Virus record (IMG/VR): IMGVR_UViG_2531839662_000018 | Coordinates: 1-12,903 of that record | Direction: 5' to 3' (one strand) | Source of the DNA: a virus | Taxonomy: Duplodnaviria; Heunggongvirae; Uroviricota; Caudoviricetes | DNA: 12,903 bases | Shown: one piece after another, positions 1,968 through 12,903 of the stretch | How the letters are laid out: each line of letters starts with the position of its first letter | Position numbering within the stretch: position 1 is the stretch's first letter | The notes under the pieces: generated by a model | The model's database searches: none | Told to the model about the DNA's origin: nothing | What the model saw: only the letters and a program-made list of their open reading frames with translations | Translations under genes and position numbers: made by a program

Positions 1968-2954
1968 ATGAACATAACAAAAAGCGCCCCGTTGCCGGAG
2001 CGCCTTTGTGAACGAATAGCCTACTGCGCCATATTGCTTACTGTCTACGAGGCAGATTATAGCGTTGTGGTCGCACAGAGTGAAGGCGCTGATCACCGTT
2101 ACTACAGCACGCCAGAAATGCAGAATATTTTGCTGCAAAATGCCGTTGGTCACGCCGTCCGGAAAGCAAAAAATTTTGCTGGTGGCGCGACTGATGCGAT
2201 TTTGTCAGGTCGCCAGGTGCTGATCAATCTGATGTCTGATTTCGTTCTGGATAAAACAAAGGCGACCGCAGAGAGCCGCCAGTGGAAAAGCTACATACTT
2301 GAACGCATCACCAACAATGCCACATTTGCGGCTGGTGGGCAAAGCGTAACCGGAAAAAAATTCCGGTGGGGCTATTCCTGCTCTTTGGCCTTGCGACGCT
2401 GGCGGTATTCAACTTCTCGCTTTAATGCTGCTGTTACAAACTGCCCTGTACTTTCACCAGGCATTTTTACCGCCTCAACATTGTTCATAACTTCATGCGG
2501 AACCCTTGCCGCAACTGTTTGTGATTTTGCGTTTACTGCTTTTGTTGCCATGTTGTGTACCCCTTACAAAAAACAAATGCAGTATGCAGGAAAAAAAATA
2601 AGTGTTCAACACTTGACGTGTTTAACACCAGGGCTTAAATTGGTGTTCAACACCTTACTGATGCAAGGTGCAGAAACGACGAAACCCGGCAGTGCGCTAA
2701 CACTAACCGGGCTTCTAACCACCAACGATAGAAAGCGTATCGAGGTAGCTATGAGAAATTATACCAGACACCCGCAAGGGCGGGACTCGTACAACCTGAA
2801 TAAATACATCTGGCGTTTTATCGCCCTGAGCACGGCACAACCGCGCGTGATTCACATCGTGGCCACCAGCGAACAGGAAGCACGCCAGCAATCCCCGGCT
2901 GGCTGCGTGATGGTATTCGCTGCCCGTATTCGCCAGGAGGTACGCCATGATTAA
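1968..2954 (+). CDS. long stop-free frame (328 aa from ATG 1968); probably a composite, not one protein
   Basis: The 5-prime 400 nt has a GAGG ribosome-binding site 9 nt upstream and coding-like, purine-rich first codon positions. The middle (2372-2654) reads as Cys/Ser/Thr/Phe-rich junk, is antisense to a well-formed RHH ORF, and contains three perfect palindromes plus a promoter. The 3-prime 204 nt (ATG 2751, GAGGT site) ends in an ATGATTAA overlap with the next gene. A gene finder would likely call the whole ORF; I consider that call doubtful. Confidence 0.3.
   Translation: MNITKSAPLPERLCERIAYCAILLTVYEADYSVVVAQSEGADHRYYSTPEMQNILLQNAVGHAVRKAKNFAGGATDAILSGRQVLINLMSDFVLDKTKATAESRQWKSYILERITNNATFAAGGQSVTGKKFRWGYSCSLALRRWRYSTSRFNAAVTNCPVLSPGIFTASTLFITSCGTLAATVCDFAFTAFVAMLCTPYKKQMQYAGKKISVQHLTCLTPGLKLVFNTLLMQGAETTKPGSALTLTGLLTTNDRKRIEVAMRNYTRHPQGRDSYNLNKYIWRFIALSTAQPRVIHIVATSEQEARQQSPAGCVMVFAARIRQEVRHD
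2372..2551 (-). CDS. ribbon-helix-helix (Arc/CopG-like) transcriptional repressor candidate, 59 aa
   Basis: Minus-strand ORF MATKAVNAKSQTVAARVPHEVMNNVEAVKMPGESTGQFVTAALKREVEYRQRRKAKEQE, below the ORF-track length cutoff. It has a beta-strand/helix/helix RHH pattern, an AAGGGG Shine-Dalgarno 8 nt upstream, and G/A-rich first codon positions, while the opposite strand looks antisense. It is transcribed divergently from the adjacent palindromic operators. Confidence 0.55.
   Translation of the reverse strand: MATKAVNAKSQTVAARVPHEVMNNVEAVKMPGESTGQFVTAALKREVEYRQRRKAKEQE
2601..2654 (+). promoter_or_regulatory. rightward sigma70-like promoter overlapped by three palindromic operators
   Basis: Palindromes AGTGTTCAACACT (2601-2613), GTGTTTAACAC (2618-2628) and GGTGTTCAACACC (2642-2654). 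Candidate -35 TTGACG (2613-2618) and -10 TTAAAT (2635-2640) with a 16-bp spacer. One operator sits just upstream of the -35, one in the spacer and one just after the -10. Confidence 0.55.
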
Positions 2955-3509: not shown

Positions 3510-3809
3510 ATGAAAAAGAAAAATTCTGGCTTTACTGCCAGTGGTCTCCCTCGGCCTGAAATCCGCCCCGGCGATATTTTCCGGGATAACTACGGCGGCA
3601 CGGTAACGATTAAAAGTATTGCCGGACGGTGCGTTACTTACCGCCGTGATGGGTACAGCTACGACTGCGTGATGCCTGTTTATCAGTTCCGGCGTGATTT
3701 TTCACTGATACAGGCCACACCACGCAAACAGCCCACCAGCAACGCAAAGGCACGGGCAAATATTCAGAAAATGAAAAACATGATTAACGCATTCAGGGGC
3801 ACAAAATGA
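3510..3809 (+). CDS. hypothetical protein (99 aa)
   Basis: Tightly packed in the operon; its stop overlaps the next start (ATGA). No family recognised. Confidence 0.7.
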   Translation: MKKKNSGFTASGLPRPEIRPGDIFRDNYGGTVTIKSIAGRCVTYRRDGYSYDCVMPVYQFRRDFSLIQATPRKQPTSNAKARANIQKMKNMINAFRGTK

Positions 3810-5221
3810 AACTGGCACCGAACTTAAAAAAACAGCCACACGACAAAATGACCGAAGTCATTATTTTTGCGGGTAGTGATGCCTGGGCGCACGCGAAACA
3901 GTGGCAGGAGCAGGACGGGCGACTTGCTGGCGACAACGTGCCGCCTGTATGGCTGGGAGACAGCCAGCTTGACGAACTGGCAGACCTGAAAATTATCGAC
4001 GATGGTCGCTATTGTGTCCGGCTGTACAAGGCAGGCCACATCAAGCCGTCAAATATTAACGCCATCGGGCAAAAGCTGGCGGCGGCAGGTGTACGGGATG
4101 CGAATTATTACCCCGAGGGAATGCACAGCCAGAAACGCGAGGAGTGGCGCGAATATCTGGAACGAGAGCGCCAGAAAAGACTGTCCGGAGAGATACCAGA
4201 GGAAGAAAAAAACGACCAGCGAAAAACCACACTGCCAATGAGTATTGGATCTGCAGGGTACGACACACAGCTTGATTATGTCGTTAAGGGCGTGATTCCG
4301 GCTAATTCATTGTGCAGCACATACGGCGCGAGCGGTTCCTATAAATCGTTCCTCGCGTGTTCCTGGGCGTGTCATGTTGCCACGGGTCGCCACTGGGGAG
4401 GCCGCAGGGTGGCGCATGGTTCGGTGATGTATGTCGTCGGTGAAGGTGGCATTGGTGTCCCTCGTCGTATCAAAGCATGGGAAATCGTTAATGATGAACG
4501 GGTGAAAAATCTGTACCTGGTAAACCGCCCGATTTTTCCGGCGGTCCCGCTTGATGTTGATGAAATGGTCATCGCTTCCCGTCAGGTTGAACGGGAAACG
4601 GGTAAACCGGTACGCATGATTATTCTGGATACGCTGGCGCGTTGCTTTGGCGGTAATGATGAAAATGACGCGCGGGATATGGGGGCGTTTATCCGTGGAT
4701 GTGACGAACTGAAACGACGCACAGGGGCTACGGTACTGGTGGTTCACCATTCCGGCAAGGATGAAACAAAAGGGGCGCGTGGTTCCAGTGCATTTCGTGC
4801 ATCTCTGGACGCTGAATACCGTATTCGCCGTGAAGGTGCGGACAGTGAAGCCCTGGTTATCTCCTGCACCAAAATGAAGGACGCGGAGGAACTGAAAGAG
4901 GCTGCATATGATTTACGCGTGGTGGAGCTTTTTACCGACACTGACGGGGAGTTAATCACGTCGCTGGTGGTTGTGGATAAGCCGCGCCCACCTGTTGAAC
5001 TGGAACGCATCGAGGAGGCCGGGAACAAGACGGAAAATCACGCTGCGCTATGGCAGTGCATCAGAACGCGAACAGCACACGGGGAGGCGTGCACTATCGC
5101 CCTTCTCCGCGATGATATGAAAAAGCTGGGGTATGAAATGAAAAACTTCCGGCGCTGGCTGTACAAGCTGGAAAGCGACGGCGTAATCGCTATTGACGGT
5201 GATTATGTGCGCCCACTGTAA
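3806..5221 (+). CDS. replication protein with RepA-like RecA-fold helicase/ATPase domain (471 aa)
   Basis: P-loop-like YGASGSYKSF, Walker-B-like MIILDTLARCF and the LVVHHSGKD motif typical of RepA/AAA_25-type replicative ATPases. The N-terminal domain of about 160 aa is of unknown type. The gene is followed immediately by an iteron array. Confidence 0.85.
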   Translation: MKLAPNLKKQPHDKMTEVIIFAGSDAWAHAKQWQEQDGRLAGDNVPPVWLGDSQLDELADLKIIDDGRYCVRLYKAGHIKPSNINAIGQKLAAAGVRDANYYPEGMHSQKREEWREYLERERQKRLSGEIPEEEKNDQRKTTLPMSIGSAGYDTQLDYVVKGVIPANSLCSTYGASGSYKSFLACSWACHVATGRHWGGRRVAHGSVMYVVGEGGIGVPRRIKAWEIVNDERVKNLYLVNRPIFPAVPLDVDEMVIASRQVERETGKPVRMIILDTLARCFGGNDENDARDMGAFIRGCDELKRRTGATVLVVHHSGKDETKGARGSSAFRASLDAEYRIRREGADSEALVISCTKMKDAEELKEAAYDLRVVELFTDTDGELITSLVVVDKPRPPVELERIEEAGNKTENHAALWQCIRTRTAHGEACTIALLRDDMKKLGYEMKNFRRWLYKLESDGVIAIDGDYVRPL

Positions 5222-5612
5222 AAAGTGAGGAGCAAAAGTGAGGATGGCGGGTAATTTAACAAAAAATCAACGCCACTCCTCACTTTCTCACCTGTATATA
5301 GGTCAAAAAGTGAGGAATGAAAAACATATTGTAAAACAAGACATTACAACAACAAGAAAAACAGGTGAGGAGCAGGACGGGAATAACAAAAAGTGAGGAA
5401 CAAAAGTGAGGAATGGTGAGTTAATAGAAATGAGGTAATAAAAATAACAGGTAGGTTAAAAAACACACCATGCAAGATATTAACTAAAACTTAACTATTT
5501 ACCTCACTTTTGCGTATATATAAGGATTAAAAAGTGAGTACTTAAAAATACATTTAAAATCATATTGTTATTAACTTCATAAATTTTCACTGTGCAGCAG
5601 GTGAGGAATTAA
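5221..5612. repeat. iteron array / candidate replication origin
   Basis: At least nine copies of the core AAAGTGAGGA, with CAGGTGAGGA variants, in both orientations (for example 5221-5232, 5235-5245, 5278-5287 reversed, 5305-5319, 5361-5372, 5387-5399, 5402-5415, 5501-5510 reversed, 5598-5610). They are embedded in AT-rich DNA with no ORF, directly downstream of the rep gene. Confidence 0.75.
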
Positions 5613-5687
5613 AAAATCAGGAATGTTAAAAATGAAAACAGAATGTTGTGTCAGTGCCGTTGGGCAACGTAGCAATCAGTAAAAACG

Positions 5688-6230
5688 ATGGGGCAAAGCA
5701 TGACTAAGCTGACCATTAACAGAAAACCTAAAGGCATTTACGGCACGCCGCAGAAAACGACGCAGGCGGCGCAGGAGCAGGATAAAACCACGTCGGCGCA
5801 TAAAGTGATGCCCGGTAACCAGAAAGCGCAGCAGAAGCCCACAGGGGCGACACCGTGGCGGCATATGACCAAACGCCAGCGCAAAAACCGCAGGCGCGTT
5901 AACCGCCTTATCGAACTGTGGCCAGAATTATTCAGCCGGGAAGCACCGAAGCCGCTTAAGGTGGGGATATTTGACGACCTGATGCAGGATCTCGCCGTCA
6001 GGGGGCTGGCATTCGGGCCAGGGGCATTACGTGCGACGCTGGCATCTTATGCGCAGTGTCCGCGCTATTACCGCGCCTTAATGGCTGGTGGGGTACGCTA
6101 CGACCTGAAAGGCCAGCCGTGCGGCGAGGTGACACCACAGGAACAACAGGACGCAGAAACGCGGCTGGTGGCGCTGAATGAGAAGCGCAAACGTCAGCGC
6201 CGGGCAGCAAAGGAGAAAACAGGCGCATGA
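5688..6230 (+). CDS. ProQ/FinO-domain RNA-binding protein
   Basis: The central region (PLKVGIFDDLMQDLAVRGLAFGPGALRATLASYAQCPRYYRALMAGGVRYDLKGQPCGEV) matches, from memory, the conserved ProQ N-terminal/FinO domain. Basic Lys/Arg-rich N- and C-terminal tails. An alternative start at ATG 5700 has a better GGGG ribosome-binding site. Confidence 0.85.
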   Translation: MGQSMTKLTINRKPKGIYGTPQKTTQAAQEQDKTTSAHKVMPGNQKAQQKPTGATPWRHMTKRQRKNRRRVNRLIELWPELFSREAPKPLKVGIFDDLMQDLAVRGLAFGPGALRATLASYAQCPRYYRALMAGGVRYDLKGQPCGEVTPQEQQDAETRLVALNEKRKRQRRAAKEKTGA

Positions 6231-6514
6231 TTCACGACAGCAAAGCGGAAGCACTGGAAGCGCGTGGTCTGTACCGGAGAGCGGCGGCGCGGTGGGCTGA
6301 GGTCATCATGCTGGCGAATGATGACAAGGCACGGGAACAGGCGGCAAAACGTCGCGCGGAATGTATCCGCAAGGCAGCACGCCCACCAGCACGGCAGGAT
6401 AATTTCGGGGAGATGCGCGAAACCATCAGCCGGGCACATGCCGGGATGGGATTACATCAGCCCAATGGTAAGGCATTCAGGAAATACCCTGGATCGAAAA
6501 ATTGCAGTCAGTGA
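6227..6514 (+). CDS. PerC-like small transcriptional regulator candidate (95 aa)
   Basis: The start overlaps the previous stop (ATGA). The N-terminus (KAEALEARGLYRRAAARWAEV) resembles the conserved opening of PerC-family regulators, recalled from memory without alignment. Basic, Arg-rich protein. Confidence 0.6.
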   Translation: MIHDSKAEALEARGLYRRAAARWAEVIMLANDDKAREQAAKRRAECIRKAARPPARQDNFGEMRETISRAHAGMGLHQPNGKAFRKYPGSKNCSQ

Positions 6515-6519
6515 CGGAG

Positions 6520-6544
6520 GCCGGGATTTTTCCCGGCTTTTTTG
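6520..6544 (+). terminator. rho-independent terminator 1 after the ProQ/FinO-PerC unit
   Basis: 7-bp stem GCCGGGA / TCCCGGC with a TTTT loop, followed by TTTTTTG. Confidence 0.75.
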
Positions 6545-6555
6545 TGCCAGTAAAA

Positions 6556-6590
6556 AGCCCGCAGCCAGAAGTGTTGCGGGCTTTGTTTTT
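6556..6590 (+). terminator. rho-independent terminator 2 (tandem)
   Basis: 8-bp stem AGCCCGCA / TGCGGGCT with an 11-nt loop, followed by TTGTTTTT. Confidence 0.7.
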
Positions 6591-6715
6591 CAGGTGATTG
6601 AAGTCAATGGGAAGAACGCGATCATCATGCGTTATTGTTTCATAAATTGCAATGATGTAGATCGTCATTTCAGTTTGTGCAATCATAATCGTTGTTTTGT
6701 TCAGGAGATATGACT

Positions 6716-6889: not shown

Positions 6890-6928
6890 TGGTCGTGATT
6901 TTTTGGTGAAAAAAGAGAGGTGGTAACA

Positions 6929-7513
6929 ATGCCAGCAAGCAAAGAAGATTTGCGATTAAAACTGATGGAGGTGGTTAACGCTCTGTCAGAGTCGCAGGGC
7001 AGCACTCCGCAGGAGATTATCGAAATTCTGAATGCGATCCCCGCACAGGATTTCACAAAAGCAGATGAGGACAACGCGAATCAAAACATCGTCGCGTCAG
7101 TCGAAGATGAATCCTCACTGGCAGAAGCCCAGGCTAAAGCAGATTCCGCATACAGCAATATGGGCCGTCGCGCTCCAGCCCCGTTTGCTGGTGAAAAGTC
7201 GATGGATTACCGCAAGCGTGCATTAATTGGTGCACAGAAGCTGGCTAAAAAATTCAGTGATGTGGATATTCGTTCCGTTTCAGATTCTGCAACGCTGGCG
7301 GTGCTGGAAGATCAGATTTACCAGGCTGCAAAAGACAGTGTTCAGTGGGCCGTGGAAAACACGCCGGGCCATTTGGGTAAAACCGTAAGAATGGATGAAG
7401 CTGGTCGTCGTATTACTGAATATCAGGGCGATCCGAACGTCTGGCTGAACGCCTTCAAAATCCCTCCCCGTCGCCTGGTCAAAATTAACACTGCAAGCCT
7501 CGCGGGGGCATGA
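6929..7513 (+). CDS. hypothetical protein (194 aa)
   Basis: ATG at 6929 with an AGAGAGG ribosome-binding site 8 nt upstream; the ORF-track start is a GTG at 6920. Acidic N-terminal half. No family recognised. Confidence 0.75.
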   Translation: MPASKEDLRLKLMEVVNALSESQGSTPQEIIEILNAIPAQDFTKADEDNANQNIVASVEDESSLAEAQAKADSAYSNMGRRAPAPFAGEKSMDYRKRALIGAQKLAKKFSDVDIRSVSDSATLAVLEDQIYQAAKDSVQWAVENTPGHLGKTVRMDEAGRRITEYQGDPNVWLNAFKIPPRRLVKINTASLAGA

Positions 7514-7577: not shown

Positions 7578-8249
7578 ATGCTTTTAACAGAAATTGAGGC
7601 GGCAAAGCAGATTCGGGACGGTCAGCTACCGTCGCCTTATCAGTTTTCCAACATGTGGCTGGTTAACCTGCGTATTACAGGAACCGGTATGGCCTACCGC
7701 GCCGAAGAAAAAGAATTTGTCTGGCGTTCACCGCAAACTTATCTCAATCCGCAGTTCCTGGAACGTTGCGCCGGAGTACCCGTCATTATCGACCATCCCG
7801 AAGGCAAAACCATTGAAGACGTTGGCGAACGGTCGCGCATTATTGGCACCGTCATGTTGCCGTATATTCGCGGTGACGAGGTGTGGGGTGTATGCCGGAT
7901 TTACGGGCAGGAAATCATCGATTACATCCAGAAAGCACGGGGGGAGGTATCCACCAGCCCGTCGGTTGTGTTTTGTGGTGCGTCCGGTGGGGCAGAAGTT
8001 CCTGATGTAATGGGCGAGGACAATTTTTTCATTGAGGGTACGCCATTCCTTATCGATCACGTTGCGCTCGTGCCGCTTGGTGTTTGGGATAAGGGCGGGA
8101 AACCATCGGGTGTGGAGGTAACAACGCCGACAGCAGAAGAACAGCTCGCCGGAATGGTCCGGGACGTTATTGATGCGGCCTGCAAGCCAGCCCTGGAAAA
8201 ACTGGAAGAAATATCCGGGCGGCTGGCTCAACTGGAAAAAACAGAGTGA
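7578..8249 (+). CDS. hypothetical protein (223 aa)
   Basis: Protein-like composition; only a weak ribosome-binding site. A faint resemblance to phage prohead-protease-like folds (PVIIDHPEG ... IGTV ... EVSTSPSV) is too weak to call. Confidence 0.75.
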   Translation: MLLTEIEAAKQIRDGQLPSPYQFSNMWLVNLRITGTGMAYRAEEKEFVWRSPQTYLNPQFLERCAGVPVIIDHPEGKTIEDVGERSRIIGTVMLPYIRGDEVWGVCRIYGQEIIDYIQKARGEVSTSPSVVFCGASGGAEVPDVMGEDNFFIEGTPFLIDHVALVPLGVWDKGGKPSGVEVTTPTAEEQLAGMVRDVIDAACKPALEKLEEISGRLAQLEKTE

Positions 8250-8874: not shown

Positions 8875-8939
8875 ATGTAAAAACAGCAGCTCAGTTTCGT
8901 GAGCTGCTCAAATTCAAAAATCCCGCAGGAGTATTGTAA
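8646..8939 (+). CDS. -1 frame ORF (97 aa from its first ATG), probably the C-terminal extension of a frameshift fusion (GT-like)
   Basis: This frame opens at 8631 just before the slip site. Its stop overlaps the start of the 679-aa gene (TAATG). Protein-like composition (FIADIEACRQFWRDGEHVISDILDYSAGAGFRDICADSGLNVKTAAQFRELLKF). Internal ATGs at 8709 and 8721, the latter with a GGAG ribosome-binding site, allow independent initiation as an alternative. Confidence 0.5.
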   Translation: MRLVDKFPGADEGDYGCGEWNMEHSMLVLESYGMDRFIADIEACRQFWRDGEHVISDILDYSAGAGFRDICADSGLNVKTAAQFRELLKFKNPAGVL

Positions 8940-10978
8940 TGTCAGGTAATCAGATGCCAGTTCTAACGCTGGACGTTAATGAAGAACACCTCAAACGGCT
9001 TGAGGCAATTTTTGAAAAGTATCGCAACGGGCTGATGATCGGCCCTGCCGGAACGCCGATGAAAATACCGGGGCAAAGTGGGCGCAGCGTGGGGGCAGGC
9101 TTACCCGTGGCGGCAAAATCTGGTCGGACAGGACCGGATGTATCCGGGAGAGTGAGGGACGAAAAAGGGCGCTTTGTCGGCAGCGGAAAAACAGCAGATT
9201 CGTTCGTAAGCAACTATAAAGGTCGCGGCGAAACGATGTTTGATAAGTATCTCAGCGGGCTGGGGAAAAATGCCCAACAGACGCTGAAAACTTACAAGCA
9301 GATCAATTCTACACTACAGACGACCACTTCAAGATTAAACAACCTGTTTAAAACAACCGTATCGTGGGGAACAAAACTCTCGGTTATGGGCGTTGCCGGA
9401 CCGTTTGGCTTTGGCATGATGTCCCGTAGTGTTGTAGAGAAACAGAAAAATGCAGATGAGCTGGTGGCAACGCCAGGAGAGTTAAAGGCGGCAGAAAGCA
9501 CTTATTCGCCTTATTTTTCCGGTGTTGGCAATGTGCTCAATACACTGGCAGCAGCACAAAATGATATATCGCATCCTGCCCGCGTCGGCCTGCTTAATCT
9601 GGGGCTAAATCCTGATAAAAACGCGACTGAAAACCTGCCTGTATTCCTGAAAAAGGTTGCAGCGCTGGCAAAGGAATATCAGGGAACTGGTCTTACCCAG
9701 AGCAATTTCAGAGGAATGGGGCTTGGATGGGTAAATTTTGGTCTTACTAACCAGTTAGTCAAATATCAGGACAAAATACCTGAACTCAACAAAGAGTTTT
9801 CGTTACGTGCAGCGCAGAATGATTCGTTACTGACCTCTGCACATACAAGTAAATATCAGAATCTTACCAGTAACCTGGAAAAAAACTGGGATCGGCTTAC
9901 CAGCGGATTTCAGGGAGCAATGGCGGGGAATGAAGACGCTTTAATCAGAATGTCTGATGGTACCACGAATGCTGCCCTGAATTTCATGAATGGTGAGAAC
10001 TTTAAAAGGATTCTGACTGATGTTGAAACGGGGCTGGATAAACTTGGTAAGTACGTTAATGGCCCGGATTTTAATAACGACCTGAACAATTTTGCCGAAA
10101 ACGTTGCAAAGGTCACCAAGGCACTTAGCGGATTTGTTGGTTTTGCCGTTGAACATCCCTGGCTTTTTGGGGCCGCAGTGCTTGCGGGGCCATCAAGAGT
10201 TGGTGCCGTGGCAGCCACAACAACCGGAGTTGCCGCTCGTGTTGTCGGTGGAAGTCTTCTTGGGGCTACAGCCGGAACAGTAGCAGGATTGGCTATTCCT
10301 ACAAATAACACACCTACCACCAGTGAGGAAATGAAAGGGCTGGAGGGGCGTTTCAACTTTGATTATTTTAACGAAGTGCAGGAGTGGCAAAAAAACAATC
10401 CGGGTAAGGTCTGGCCTGGAGGATTGCAGGGATTTTCAAATCAAGTAAACAGATCTGCATATTTATCCAGAGGGATCAGGAATAACAATCCCGGAAATCT
10501 TAATTTCGCAGGACAAAAAGGGGCTACTCTGGAATCGGGGCCAAATGCCCGTTTTGCCAGCTTCCCGACGATGCTGGAAGGCATTGCCGCCTTAGATCGG
10601 CAGGTAATGCTATACCTGAAACGCGGCAAAAATACGATTGATCAGATTATTGATATTTATGCCCCTTCATCTGATGGAAATAACACATCGTCCTATAAAA
10701 GCTATCTTTCTCAGTACACCGGATTAGGTGTTAAGGAGAAAATTGATGGTTCTAATTTTGAGGTCATGAAAAAGCTAATTCAGGGCATTATTAACCATGA
10801 AAATGGTGCTGCCGCTAAAGCTGTAAGTGTTGAAGATGTGATCCGGGCGCTGGCTATGAATCGTGGGATTGTCCCTGCAGCAGGAAACAATGATCAGAAC
10901 GTTAAGTTGGAAATTGTTCGGAACGCTGGTGCCGATTACTTCGCGCAACTAATTGGTGCTCAACGGTTCCTGGGATGA
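8939..10978 (+). CDS. large protein (679 aa) with Gly/Ala-rich hydrophobic core; tape-measure-like candidate
   Basis: Strong AGGAG ribosome-binding site, coupled to the upstream ORF. An Asn/Thr/Gly-rich N-terminal 400 aa. A hydrophobic segment FAVEHPWLFGAAVLAGPSRVGAVAATTTGVAARVVGGSLLGATAGTVAGLAIP (nt about 10143-10300). A C-terminal domain of about 220 aa containing the motif RGIRNNNPGNL (nt about 10471-10503). Confidence 0.9.
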   Translation: MSGNQMPVLTLDVNEEHLKRLEAIFEKYRNGLMIGPAGTPMKIPGQSGRSVGAGLPVAAKSGRTGPDVSGRVRDEKGRFVGSGKTADSFVSNYKGRGETMFDKYLSGLGKNAQQTLKTYKQINSTLQTTTSRLNNLFKTTVSWGTKLSVMGVAGPFGFGMMSRSVVEKQKNADELVATPGELKAAESTYSPYFSGVGNVLNTLAAAQNDISHPARVGLLNLGLNPDKNATENLPVFLKKVAALAKEYQGTGLTQSNFRGMGLGWVNFGLTNQLVKYQDKIPELNKEFSLRAAQNDSLLTSAHTSKYQNLTSNLEKNWDRLTSGFQGAMAGNEDALIRMSDGTTNAALNFMNGENFKRILTDVETGLDKLGKYVNGPDFNNDLNNFAENVAKVTKALSGFVGFAVEHPWLFGAAVLAGPSRVGAVAATTTGVAARVVGGSLLGATAGTVAGLAIPTNNTPTTSEEMKGLEGRFNFDYFNEVQEWQKNNPGKVWPGGLQGFSNQVNRSAYLSRGIRNNNPGNLNFAGQKGATLESGPNARFASFPTMLEGIAALDRQVMLYLKRGKNTIDQIIDIYAPSSDGNNTSSYKSYLSQYTGLGVKEKIDGSNFEVMKKLIQGIINHENGAAAKAVSVEDVIRALAMNRGIVPAAGNNDQNVKLEIVRNAGADYFAQLIGAQRFLG

Positions 10979-11860: not shown

Positions 11861-12040
11861 ATGACCATCACCGAAGCCGATATGCTGGAGATGATCCGCA
11901 GCATTGCCGGAATCAGACAACCAGCAAGCAAAATTAACAGGTGTTCAGCGCCTGTTTCCGTTGTGCTGCAACAGGAGCGCCACCAGCATGATGATGTGAG
12001 GCCGTATCAGTGGCGGAAACCGGACAGGCCGCGACGGTGA
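11861..12040 (+). CDS. short paralog (59 aa) of the terminal gene, with an internal deletion
   Basis: MTITEADMLEMIRSIAGIRQPASK ... RPYQWRKPDRPRR. Both ends are homologous to the 94-aa protein at 12619-12903 by eye at DNA and protein level, but about 40 central residues are missing. It has an AAGGTG ribosome-binding site and is below the ORF-track cutoff. Confidence 0.45.
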   Translation: MTITEADMLEMIRSIAGIRQPASKINRCSAPVSVVLQQERHQHDDVRPYQWRKPDRPRR

Positions 12041-12618: not shown

Positions 12619-12903
12619 ATGACCGAAGCCGAAATGCTCAAAATGATTCGCCAGATTGCCGGGATCAGACCACCAGCAGGCAAACAGGAGGCCACGCAGC
12701 CGGACAGCGTGATAGCCGAAAATTACGCGCGTGTGGTGGCTGAGGTGATGCGCCGTGACGGTATCGAGCTTAACGGCGTTGATATGCGCGACATACGAAT
12801 CAGAGTTCTGGAGATGTTGTCATATCGTCGCCGCGTGGAGATGTACCGGGAGAGCGAGAAAAAGACTTACCAGTGGAAAAAACCGGAGCGGCTGCGTACG
12901 TAA
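12619..12903 (+). CDS. hypothetical small protein (94 aa)
   Basis: ATG at 12619 with a GGAGG Shine-Dalgarno at 8-nt spacing; the ORF-track starts at 12589 and 12613 lack a good ribosome-binding site. Highly charged, protein-like sequence (MTEAEMLKMIRQIAGIRPPAGKQ ... KTYQWKKPERLRT). The stop is the last codon of the window. Confidence 0.75.
   Translation: MTEAEMLKMIRQIAGIRPPAGKQEATQPDSVIAENYARVVAEVMRRDGIELNGVDMRDIRIRVLEMLSYRRRVEMYRESEKKTYQWKKPERLRT

Follow-up and report, generated by a model that had tools for sequence, protein, structure and literature searches.

Two adjacent genes in the viral record IMGVR_UViG_2531839662_000018, encoding a FinO-domain RNA-binding protein and a PerC-like regulator, are on balance probably the last two cistrons of the early/replication operon of a phage satellite of about 13.2 kb, of the phage-inducible chromosomal island (PICI) type, and their functions would be independent of each other. 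The window, that is, the whole stretch of 12,903 nucleotides analysed here, is 100% identical to the chromosome of Escherichia coli UMNF18, a porcine diarrhoeal isolate, and in the annotated neighbourhood of that genome it corresponds nearly exactly to one integrative element lying between yejM/tRNA-Pro and yejO. A first-pass annotation had described the region 5688-6590 as a translationally coupled, insulated cargo module acting on host or helper gene expression rather than on island replication; the pair was correctly recognised there, but the functional link between the two genes was over-read. The region comprises the following features:

5700 to 6230, plus strand: gene of a FinO-domain RNA-binding protein (176 aa), recognised by Pfam PF04352, fold, pocket residues and the ratio of nonsynonymous to synonymous divergence (dN/dS)
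6227 to 6514, plus strand: gene of a PerC-family (group-3 Pch/PchE-like) small regulator (95 aa), recognised by PF06069, identity to PchE and dN/dS
6517 to 6547, plus strand only: terminator T1, GGAGGCCGGGA-UUUU-UCCCGGCUU, with an 11-bp stem, UUUU loop and U6 tail, dG -18.3 kcal/mol
6553 to 6590, terminator-like on both strands because of an A-run on its 5' side: terminator T2, AAAGCCCGCAGCC-AGAA-G-GUUGCGGGCUUU followed by GUUUUU, with a stem of 12-13 bp, dG -20.9 kcal/mol

Both domain assignments of the first-pass annotation were borne out. The ProQ/FinO family (PF04352) matched residues 68-172 of the larger protein at E=6.9e-24 and 84.4 bits (cut-off 27), covering profile positions 5-108 of 109, and searches against solved structures agreed with this. 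A profile of 19 homologous sequences matched the N-terminal domain of ProQ (5nb9, 1.1e-18) and FinO (1dvo, 5.2e-16) in the PDB, with RocC found as well. The AlphaFold2 (AF2) model reaches a pLDDT of about 90 over residues 58-175, residues 1-50 being disordered, and the protein can be divided as follows:

residues 1-50: disordered, K/Q/T-rich
residues ~58-145: FinO domain
residues 146-175: long basic C-terminal helix

Using this model, Foldseek returned FinO (1dvo), RocC (7rgt/7rgu) and NMB1681 (3mw6), each with a probability of 1.00; the E-values were 1.2e-6 for FinO (rmsd 2.0 A over 102 residues) and 8.5e-6 for the RocC-terminator complex (7rgu). The 3'-nucleotide pocket of RocC consists of G52, R75, Y87 and R97 (PMC9674577), with which G89, R111, Y124 and R133 of the window protein align in a hidden Markov model alignment, and these pocket residues are kept in 16-19 of the 19 homologues. 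The start of the gene is placed at 5700, since the homologues all begin with MT(K/T)LTINRK, DNA conservation among the islands reaches no further than about 15 nt upstream of the ATG at 5700, and RefSeq uses the same start. The start at 5688 given in the first-pass annotation, four codons upstream, is not conserved, and its ATG is missing from islands in which a gene for single-stranded DNA-binding protein (SSB) precedes FinO.

Among solved structures, the N-terminal domain of E. coli ProQ (5nb9) is the best sequence match to the FinO-domain protein, which has equivalents of K35, G37, R58, Y70 and R80; unlike ProQ, it is without the linker and the C-terminal Tudor-like domain and ends after the helix 146-175. 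FinO of F-like plasmids (1dvo), to which Foldseek gives the best match, and the FopA protein of IncI plasmids are like the window protein in combining a FinO domain with helical/basic extensions, in being without the Tudor-like domain and in being carried by a mobile element. The window gene differs from theirs in not being placed in a tra or replication-control locus, and a FinP- or Inc-like antisense RNA was not found; its predicted disordered N-terminus also differs from the long helix of FinO. The NCBIfam models scored 57.5 bits for the ProQ equivalog NF003434 (cut-off 127) and 63.7 bits for FinO NF010317 (cut-off 136), and judged by its sequence the satellite FinO-domain protein is neither ProQ nor FinO proper. 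It was matched 383 times in complete E. coli genomes, all matches being chromosomal and 0 on plasmids; unlike the gene for ProQ, it is island-borne and found in only about 6% of these genomes. Deposited phage genomes contained distant relatives only, at 27-39% identity, in Cronobacter, Sodalis, Aeromonas and Shewanella phages. One IMG/VR contig (L081, 5001-6193) carries tandem FinO-domain genes followed by a small Cys-rich zinc-finger-like open reading frame (ORF) replacing PerC. E. coli PICIs are said in the literature all to have RgdR next to PerC; RgdR was considered as a FinO-domain protein and rejected, being a 99-aa DUF4222 protein encoded upstream of the replication gene.

The smaller protein matched PF06069 (PerC) over practically its full length, at E=2.2e-32 and 111.6 bits (cut-off 22.6) over positions 1-89 of 90. 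It contains the invariant PerC motif E-x-L-E-x-x-G-x-YRRAA-x-RW and is 51% identical to PchE of E. coli O157 Sakai over 90 aa. The AF2 model is a helical bundle (H5-13, H16-29, H33-50 and H61-73, the fourth helix being less confident), for which a Foldseek search of the PDB gave nothing better than E=4, with weak TPR/MIT-like helical matches only; no recognisable DNA-binding motif or fold was found in the model or by the fold search. The ATG is preceded by AAGGAG, 11 nt upstream, within the last part of the FinO gene. Among pairs with greater divergence, dN/dS was 0.13-0.25 for the FinO-domain gene and 0.17-0.40 for PerC. Both genes are under purifying selection and are not chance ORFs. No homology support was obtained for the minus-strand ORFs within 5688-6590, which lie in the GC-richest stretch and were treated as chance ORFs.

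The ATGA overlap at 6227-6230, common to the FinO stop and the PerC start, was likewise confirmed, and its meaning was examined in a comparison of about 160 related loci. Of the FinO loci (n=84), 77 are IMG/VR contigs and the others come from genomes of E. coli and of two further Escherichia species, a scan of a collection with one genome per species having yielded two loci, in E. ruysiae and E. albertii; a PerC relative is encoded on 275 IMG/VR stretches, and upstream neighbours were counted in the best 80 of these. The overlap was present in 49 of the 58 FinO loci with PerC downstream, at PerC identities of 61-100%. Two of the other nine have a 2-nt gap, two distant ones have +19 or -11 nt, and five have an intervening 120-aa ORF. 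The FinO loci without PerC (26/84) have an unrelated 82-aa ORF there instead, likewise overlapping the FinO stop; this ORF of capsid-forming PICIs (cf-PICIs) was considered as a divergent PerC and rejected, as no Pfam support was found even at E<=1. The gene directly upstream of PerC was FinO in 52 of the best 80 loci, SSB in 19, an 83-aa ORF in four and another gene in five, PerC thus being without FinO in 28 of the 80. The cf-PICI Sp7 of Sakai has the array 83-aa/SSB/PchE without FinO; the 'single-stranded DNA-binding protein' before pchE was rejected as a FinO-domain protein, since Pfam identifies it as a true SSB (4.2e-17) and it does not resemble the FinO-domain protein of the window.

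Because the neighbours of FinO and PerC vary across both locus samples, the post-origin region is, on sequence grounds, a mosaic array of 83-aa ORF, SSB, FinO and PerC, of which the first three members are each optional. Synonymous divergence is also discordant between the window and a related locus (L036), with dS of 0.21 for FinO and 0.98 for PerC, which indicates recombination at the FinO/PerC junction. Overlaps of this kind recur along the same operon, the Icd-like gene and the next by 8 nt, that gene and its successor by 8 nt, and the DUF4222 gene and repA by 4 nt; with three further overlapping junctions, the view that the ATGA specially ties FinO to PerC did not hold. The two proteins would act independently, their adjacency reflecting the compact mosaic post-origin array.

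Upstream, two further features bear on the extent of the operon:

5218 to 5640, no strand assigned: replication origin, a stretch of 33% GC flanked by the iteron AAAGTGAGGA, which is present 10 times or more and in both orientations
2613 to 2641, plus strand: promoter-like site TTGACG-17-TAAATT, a scan match with three GTGTTYAACAC repeats around it, upstream of the Icd-like gene

The origin separates the RepA-type helicase gene (3806-5221) from the FinO gene and defines the slot of the pair. In the island comparison no promoter or other conserved sequence was found upstream of FinO beyond about 15 nt, and in related islands with SSB the FinO gene starts 36 nt after it; on these grounds FinO is taken as the tail of the replication operon. 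The window scan found no strong plus-strand terminator between 2613-2641 and T1/T2. The simplest reading would be one long early operon terminating at T1/T2, and its likeliest start is the promoter-like site at 2613-2641.

At the other end, the two consecutive strong intrinsic terminators reported after PerC were found again at 6517-6547 and 6553-6590. The 101-nt stretch holding T1 and T2 has a fold z of -4.7 against shuffles (0/200 shuffles as good), and T2 is the top-ranked terminator-like site of the entire window; T1 was missed by the pattern scanner, though its fold and U-run are plain in the sequence. The tandem was seen in seven sequence variants, in which the T1 hairpin is conserved, and one stem pair of T2 occurs in the states G-C, A.C and A-U, which suggests that the hairpin is maintained. 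The tandem is restricted to the clade of the window. In other clades T1 is decayed (the O104:H4 type) or there is an unrelated single terminator, and in islands with a different late module the T1 hairpin has its U-run replaced and T2 is absent. The description of the pair as an insulated unit therefore stands at the 3' end, by virtue of the terminators and in some islands, but not at the 5' end, where no conserved promoter or boundary exists.

The element as a whole is flanked by a 16-bp direct repeat, TTTTTAGCTACACGTT, in two copies 13.2 kb apart (6511-6526 and 19737-19752 of locus L001, outside the window), of which the left one follows tRNA-Pro at a distance of 119 nt and the right one lies 233 nt beyond the window end; these are likely the att sites, giving an element of about 13.2 kb. 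Its 5' half encodes, in order, a tyrosine integrase, an AlpA-like helix-turn-helix (HTH) protein, a YlcI/YnfO gene on the opposite strand, an Icd-like gene and two small ORFs, followed by DUF4222 (RgdR-family), the RepA/AAA_25 helicase, the iteron origin, the FinO-domain and PerC genes, T1/T2 and a late module. All of int, alpA, repA, the origin and the flanking repeats are intact. The genomic traits of Gram-negative PICIs are thus present, namely int and alpA, an iteron origin behind the replication gene, a co-oriented operon, a size of ~10-16 kb, flanking att repeats and the absence of tail or lysis genes, and an origin immediately after the replication gene is the published layout of these elements (PMC6092414). 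From gene order and content, the island is a PICI-type phage satellite. EcCICFT073, EcCIED1a and EcCIMP1 share with it int, alpA, an Icd-like gene, DUF4222/RgdR, a replication gene with iteron origin and a PerC homologue, and they too are without tail and lysis genes at 11-16 kb; the RepA/AAA_25 helicase is a difference, most relatives using a DUF927 primase.

The pair was matched in 321 of 5426 complete E. coli genomes, chromosomal every time, including the O104:H4 outbreak strain and a porcine enterotoxigenic E. coli (ETEC); the pair of O104:H4 is 95% identical to that of the window. A related island at the same yejM/yejO site (L007) has a FinO protein of 79% identity and an SSB gene, and ends after PerC without a late module. 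In E. coli OkiPb01710 (L005) a FinO-bearing cf-PICI lies inside the terminase large-subunit gene of a prophage, resembling the helper-embedded satellite configuration described in PMC10111431. The O104:H4 island carries an AAA ATPase/DUF4435 pair in its 3' accessory hotspot. This pair presumably resembles the PARIS defence system.

Of the characterised relatives of the PerC-like protein the closest is PchE (ECs_1588; EcCIEDL933, Sakai Sp7 or O-island 51), which is likewise a PF06069 protein of group 3 and is encoded in the same position, after the origin and before the late module, then a small ORF, with an RgdR-family gene before the replication gene. It differs from the window in being preceded by the 83-aa ORF and SSB, with a 10-nt gap to SSB and no overlap, and in that the downstream module of Sakai Sp7 encodes capsid, portal and terminase. 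PerC homologues are accessory genes of E. coli PICIs, and some activate the enterocyte effacement locus (LEE) (PMC6092414). The PerC-like protein of EcCIMP1 (EcCIMP1_025) represses LEE1 (PMC11773190), and the homologues of EDL933 (PchE) and CFT073 had no effect on it (PMC11773190, citing Porter 2005). PchE represses csgD/curli, is expressed from the uninduced chromosome and drops upon SOS induction (PMC6265319); it also represses flagella. The proposal of a cargo module acting on the host is supported to the extent that PchE and the EcCIMP1 homologue act on host genes, but not as regards a module, FinO and PerC being separable and probably forming the tail of a replication operon.

If the two genes are the independent last cistrons of the early operon, transcription would enter at the promoter-like site near 2613, in the AT-rich origin or at both, pass through repA and the origin, and stop at T1, T2 serving as a back-up. 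Translation of PerC would depend on re-initiation or begin from the AAGGAG that lies in the last part of FinO. The FinO-domain protein would bind intrinsic-terminator hairpins with a 3' U-tail, and thereby stabilise or anneal a small RNA set; terminator-hairpin binding is the norm for the FinO/ProQ family (PMC9674577, PMC9977716). Candidate RNAs are the mRNA that encodes it, which would terminate at T1/T2, and short antisense RNAs of the island, the helper or the host. T1 and T2 appear to have the shape bound by FinO domains, and that they serve as ligands is conjecture by analogy. By analogy with PchE, the PerC-like protein may change how host loci are transcribed (curli/csgD, flagella and, in strains that have it, LEE), and it probably works through protein-protein or nucleoid-remodelling contacts, since it has no recognisable DNA-binding fold.

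Several observations weigh against this reading. A role in replication or in the life cycle would suit the slot beside the origin and SSB equally well, PchE is only 51% identical to the window protein, and PerC homologues vary, some activating LEE, some repressing it and some being inert (PMC11773190, PMC6092414). Promoter-like matches in the window are no commoner than in shuffles, the site at 2613 being assigned by consensus match only. Rfam searches over the window gave only a sub-threshold SymR-like match (2678-2750, minus strand, 32.8 bits against a gathering score of 61), which falls in the leader of the Icd-like gene. IsrK and C4 antisense RNA elements, both above their Rfam gathering scores, are present upstream of the Icd-like gene in the related island L007 (4236-4424), and were found neither in the window island nor in the three other islands searched, two of which have FinO; no consistent known RNA partner for the FinO-domain protein was found. 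The SymR-like match lies in the stretch 2560-2760, a control region from which the YlcI/YnfO gene (minus strand) and the Icd-like gene diverge and in which the promoter-like site is followed by a two-hairpin leader. It could correspond to an RNA element for immunity or antisense control, comparable with P4 CI.

The first alternative is that the pair forms a life-cycle module, in which the PerC-like protein switches on or de-silences the late operon about 150 nt downstream, or the late genes of the helper, and the FinO-domain protein chaperones an antisense RNA for Icd, RepA or another island product. This is rather unlikely, but it is a serious rival. The slot lies directly after the origin, is shared with SSB and belongs to the core co-oriented block and not to the 3' accessory hotspot. 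Among the array members after the origin, moreover, PerC is the constant one in the loci sampled, and FinO-family proteins of plasmids (FinO/FinP, FopA/Inc) control replication or transfer via cis-antisense RNAs (PMC9977716). Given this slot directly after the origin, the phrase 'rather than on island replication' was overstated. The promoter-like region behind the strong terminator, in which the -35 is poor and two direct repeats occur, has the look of an activator-dependent late promoter:

6638 to 6689, plus strand: promoter-like region of the late/packaging-interference operon, with TTTCAnnnnTKGCAAT repeats at 6638-6653 and 6668-6683 and TCGTCA-16-CATAAT

The repeat motif has 12 matches in the window against 4.0 expected, the two best being this pair, 30 nt apart, and it may be an operator for some activator or repressor. 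As an operator for PerC it is unsupported, as it tracks the downstream module and not the PerC allele, being absent beside PerC proteins of 92-94% identity (L003/L008). The first repeat is also found in islands with a different first late gene and in a locus with FinO and without PerC (L078). The same capsid/portal/terminase module, furthermore, occurs both in a cf-PICI that has PchE (Sakai Sp7) and in one that lacks PerC altogether (OkiPb01710), and the L007 island, ending right after PerC, keeps both genes intact. Expression of pchE without induction, and its fall on SOS induction (PMC6265319), also argue against such a life-cycle module, and the Rfam searches yielded no antisense RNA candidate.

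A further proposal concerns the FinO-domain protein alone. It may represent a satellite-specific branch of the FinO/ProQ family and a dedicated RNA chaperone in the conflict between satellite, helper and host, either bringing together an antisense RNA of the satellite and an mRNA of helper or island, or competing with host ProQ for terminator 3' ends; this is a tentative and rather doubtful suggestion.

More improbable is the strict form of the first-pass annotation, an autonomous insulated cassette (moron) with which FinO and PerC jointly reprogram host virulence loci such as LEE. The frequent conservation of the ATGA across PerC identities of 61-100%, the strong 3' terminators and the GC content of 0.625, the highest in the window, would be expected of such a cassette, and PerC/Pch proteins do regulate LEE in enteropathogenic and enterohaemorrhagic E. 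coli. However, its 5' boundary or promoter is not conserved, the genes occur apart and recombine at their junction, and overlaps are routine across the operon. The pair's hosts also include O104:H4 and the porcine ETEC, which we take to be LEE-negative. Group-3 homologues, in addition, did not activate LEE1 (PMC11773190, citing Porter 2005). The position in the core block, without a promoter of its own and away from the accessory hotspot at the 3' end, argues against a classic cargo cassette in general. That the genes are decaying remnants without present function in a defective prophage-like island is very improbable, for although PerC is frameshifted in PU-1 and truncated in L021/L022/L065 and L007 is without the late module, in the window both ORFs are intact, dN/dS stays far below 1, the residues of the RNA pocket are kept, the pair persists in hundreds of complete genomes, and int, alpA, repA, the origin and the flanking repeats are whole.

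The late module downstream of T1/T2 encodes a 57-65 aa ORF, two phrog_6216/DUF2213 (head-protease-like) proteins, a 205-aa protein, a 679-aa protein and an HTH protein like the terminase small subunit (TerS); its proteins match PHROGs of head protease, terminase small subunit and transglycosylase. It differs from the modules of known PICIs in its DUF2213 protease-like, 679-aa transglycosylase-like and TerS-like HTH proteins. The ORFs at 6920-7513 and 7578-8249 match phrog_6216 (545 positions) in swapped order, 402-545 and then 115-329, and the second also matches DUF2213 and head maturation protease; together they look like a split, permuted protease/scaffold-like gene. The C-terminal third (~466-637) of the 679-aa protein (8939-10978) matches tape-measure, endolysin and injection transglycosylase PHROGs, and such a transglycosylase-like protein is not commonly carried by a satellite that has no tail genes. 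Two paralogous ORFs at 11861-12040 and 12619-12903 have common N-termini (MT[IM]TEA[DE]ML[EK]MIR[SQ]IAGIR) and C-termini (YQW[RK]KP[DE]R), with repeated flanking DNA, and the former looks like an internally deleted copy of the latter.

In the early operon, the DUF4222 protein (3510-3809) is 65% identical to RgdR (ECs1581), with P-G-D replacing the name-giving R-G-D at residue 20. RgdR is a published regulator of type III secretion and motility (PMC3378721). With DUF4222/RgdR and PerC, the island holds members of two families of 'LEE regulators'.

The occurrence of PerC in PICIs has already been published, and both domains were already annotated, the RefSeq labels being 'ProQ/FINO family protein' and 'PerC family transcriptional regulator'; the literature mentions a ProQ/FinO-like PICI gene once, in passing (PMC13612085). 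The current picture of PICI biology is unchanged by the finding. The PerC-like gene is a further allele of a family that modulates adhesion, motility and type III secretion, and would matter mainly for differences from strain to strain. The main interest lies in the satellite FinO-domain protein, for which no functional study was found in the literature. If it has RNA clients of its own, strains carrying the satellite would gain an extra FinO-family chaperone besides ProQ, and besides FinO where an F-like plasmid is present, and the protein would offer a natural case for studying how FinO domains choose their RNAs and how satellites may use RNA chaperones against helpers or hosts.

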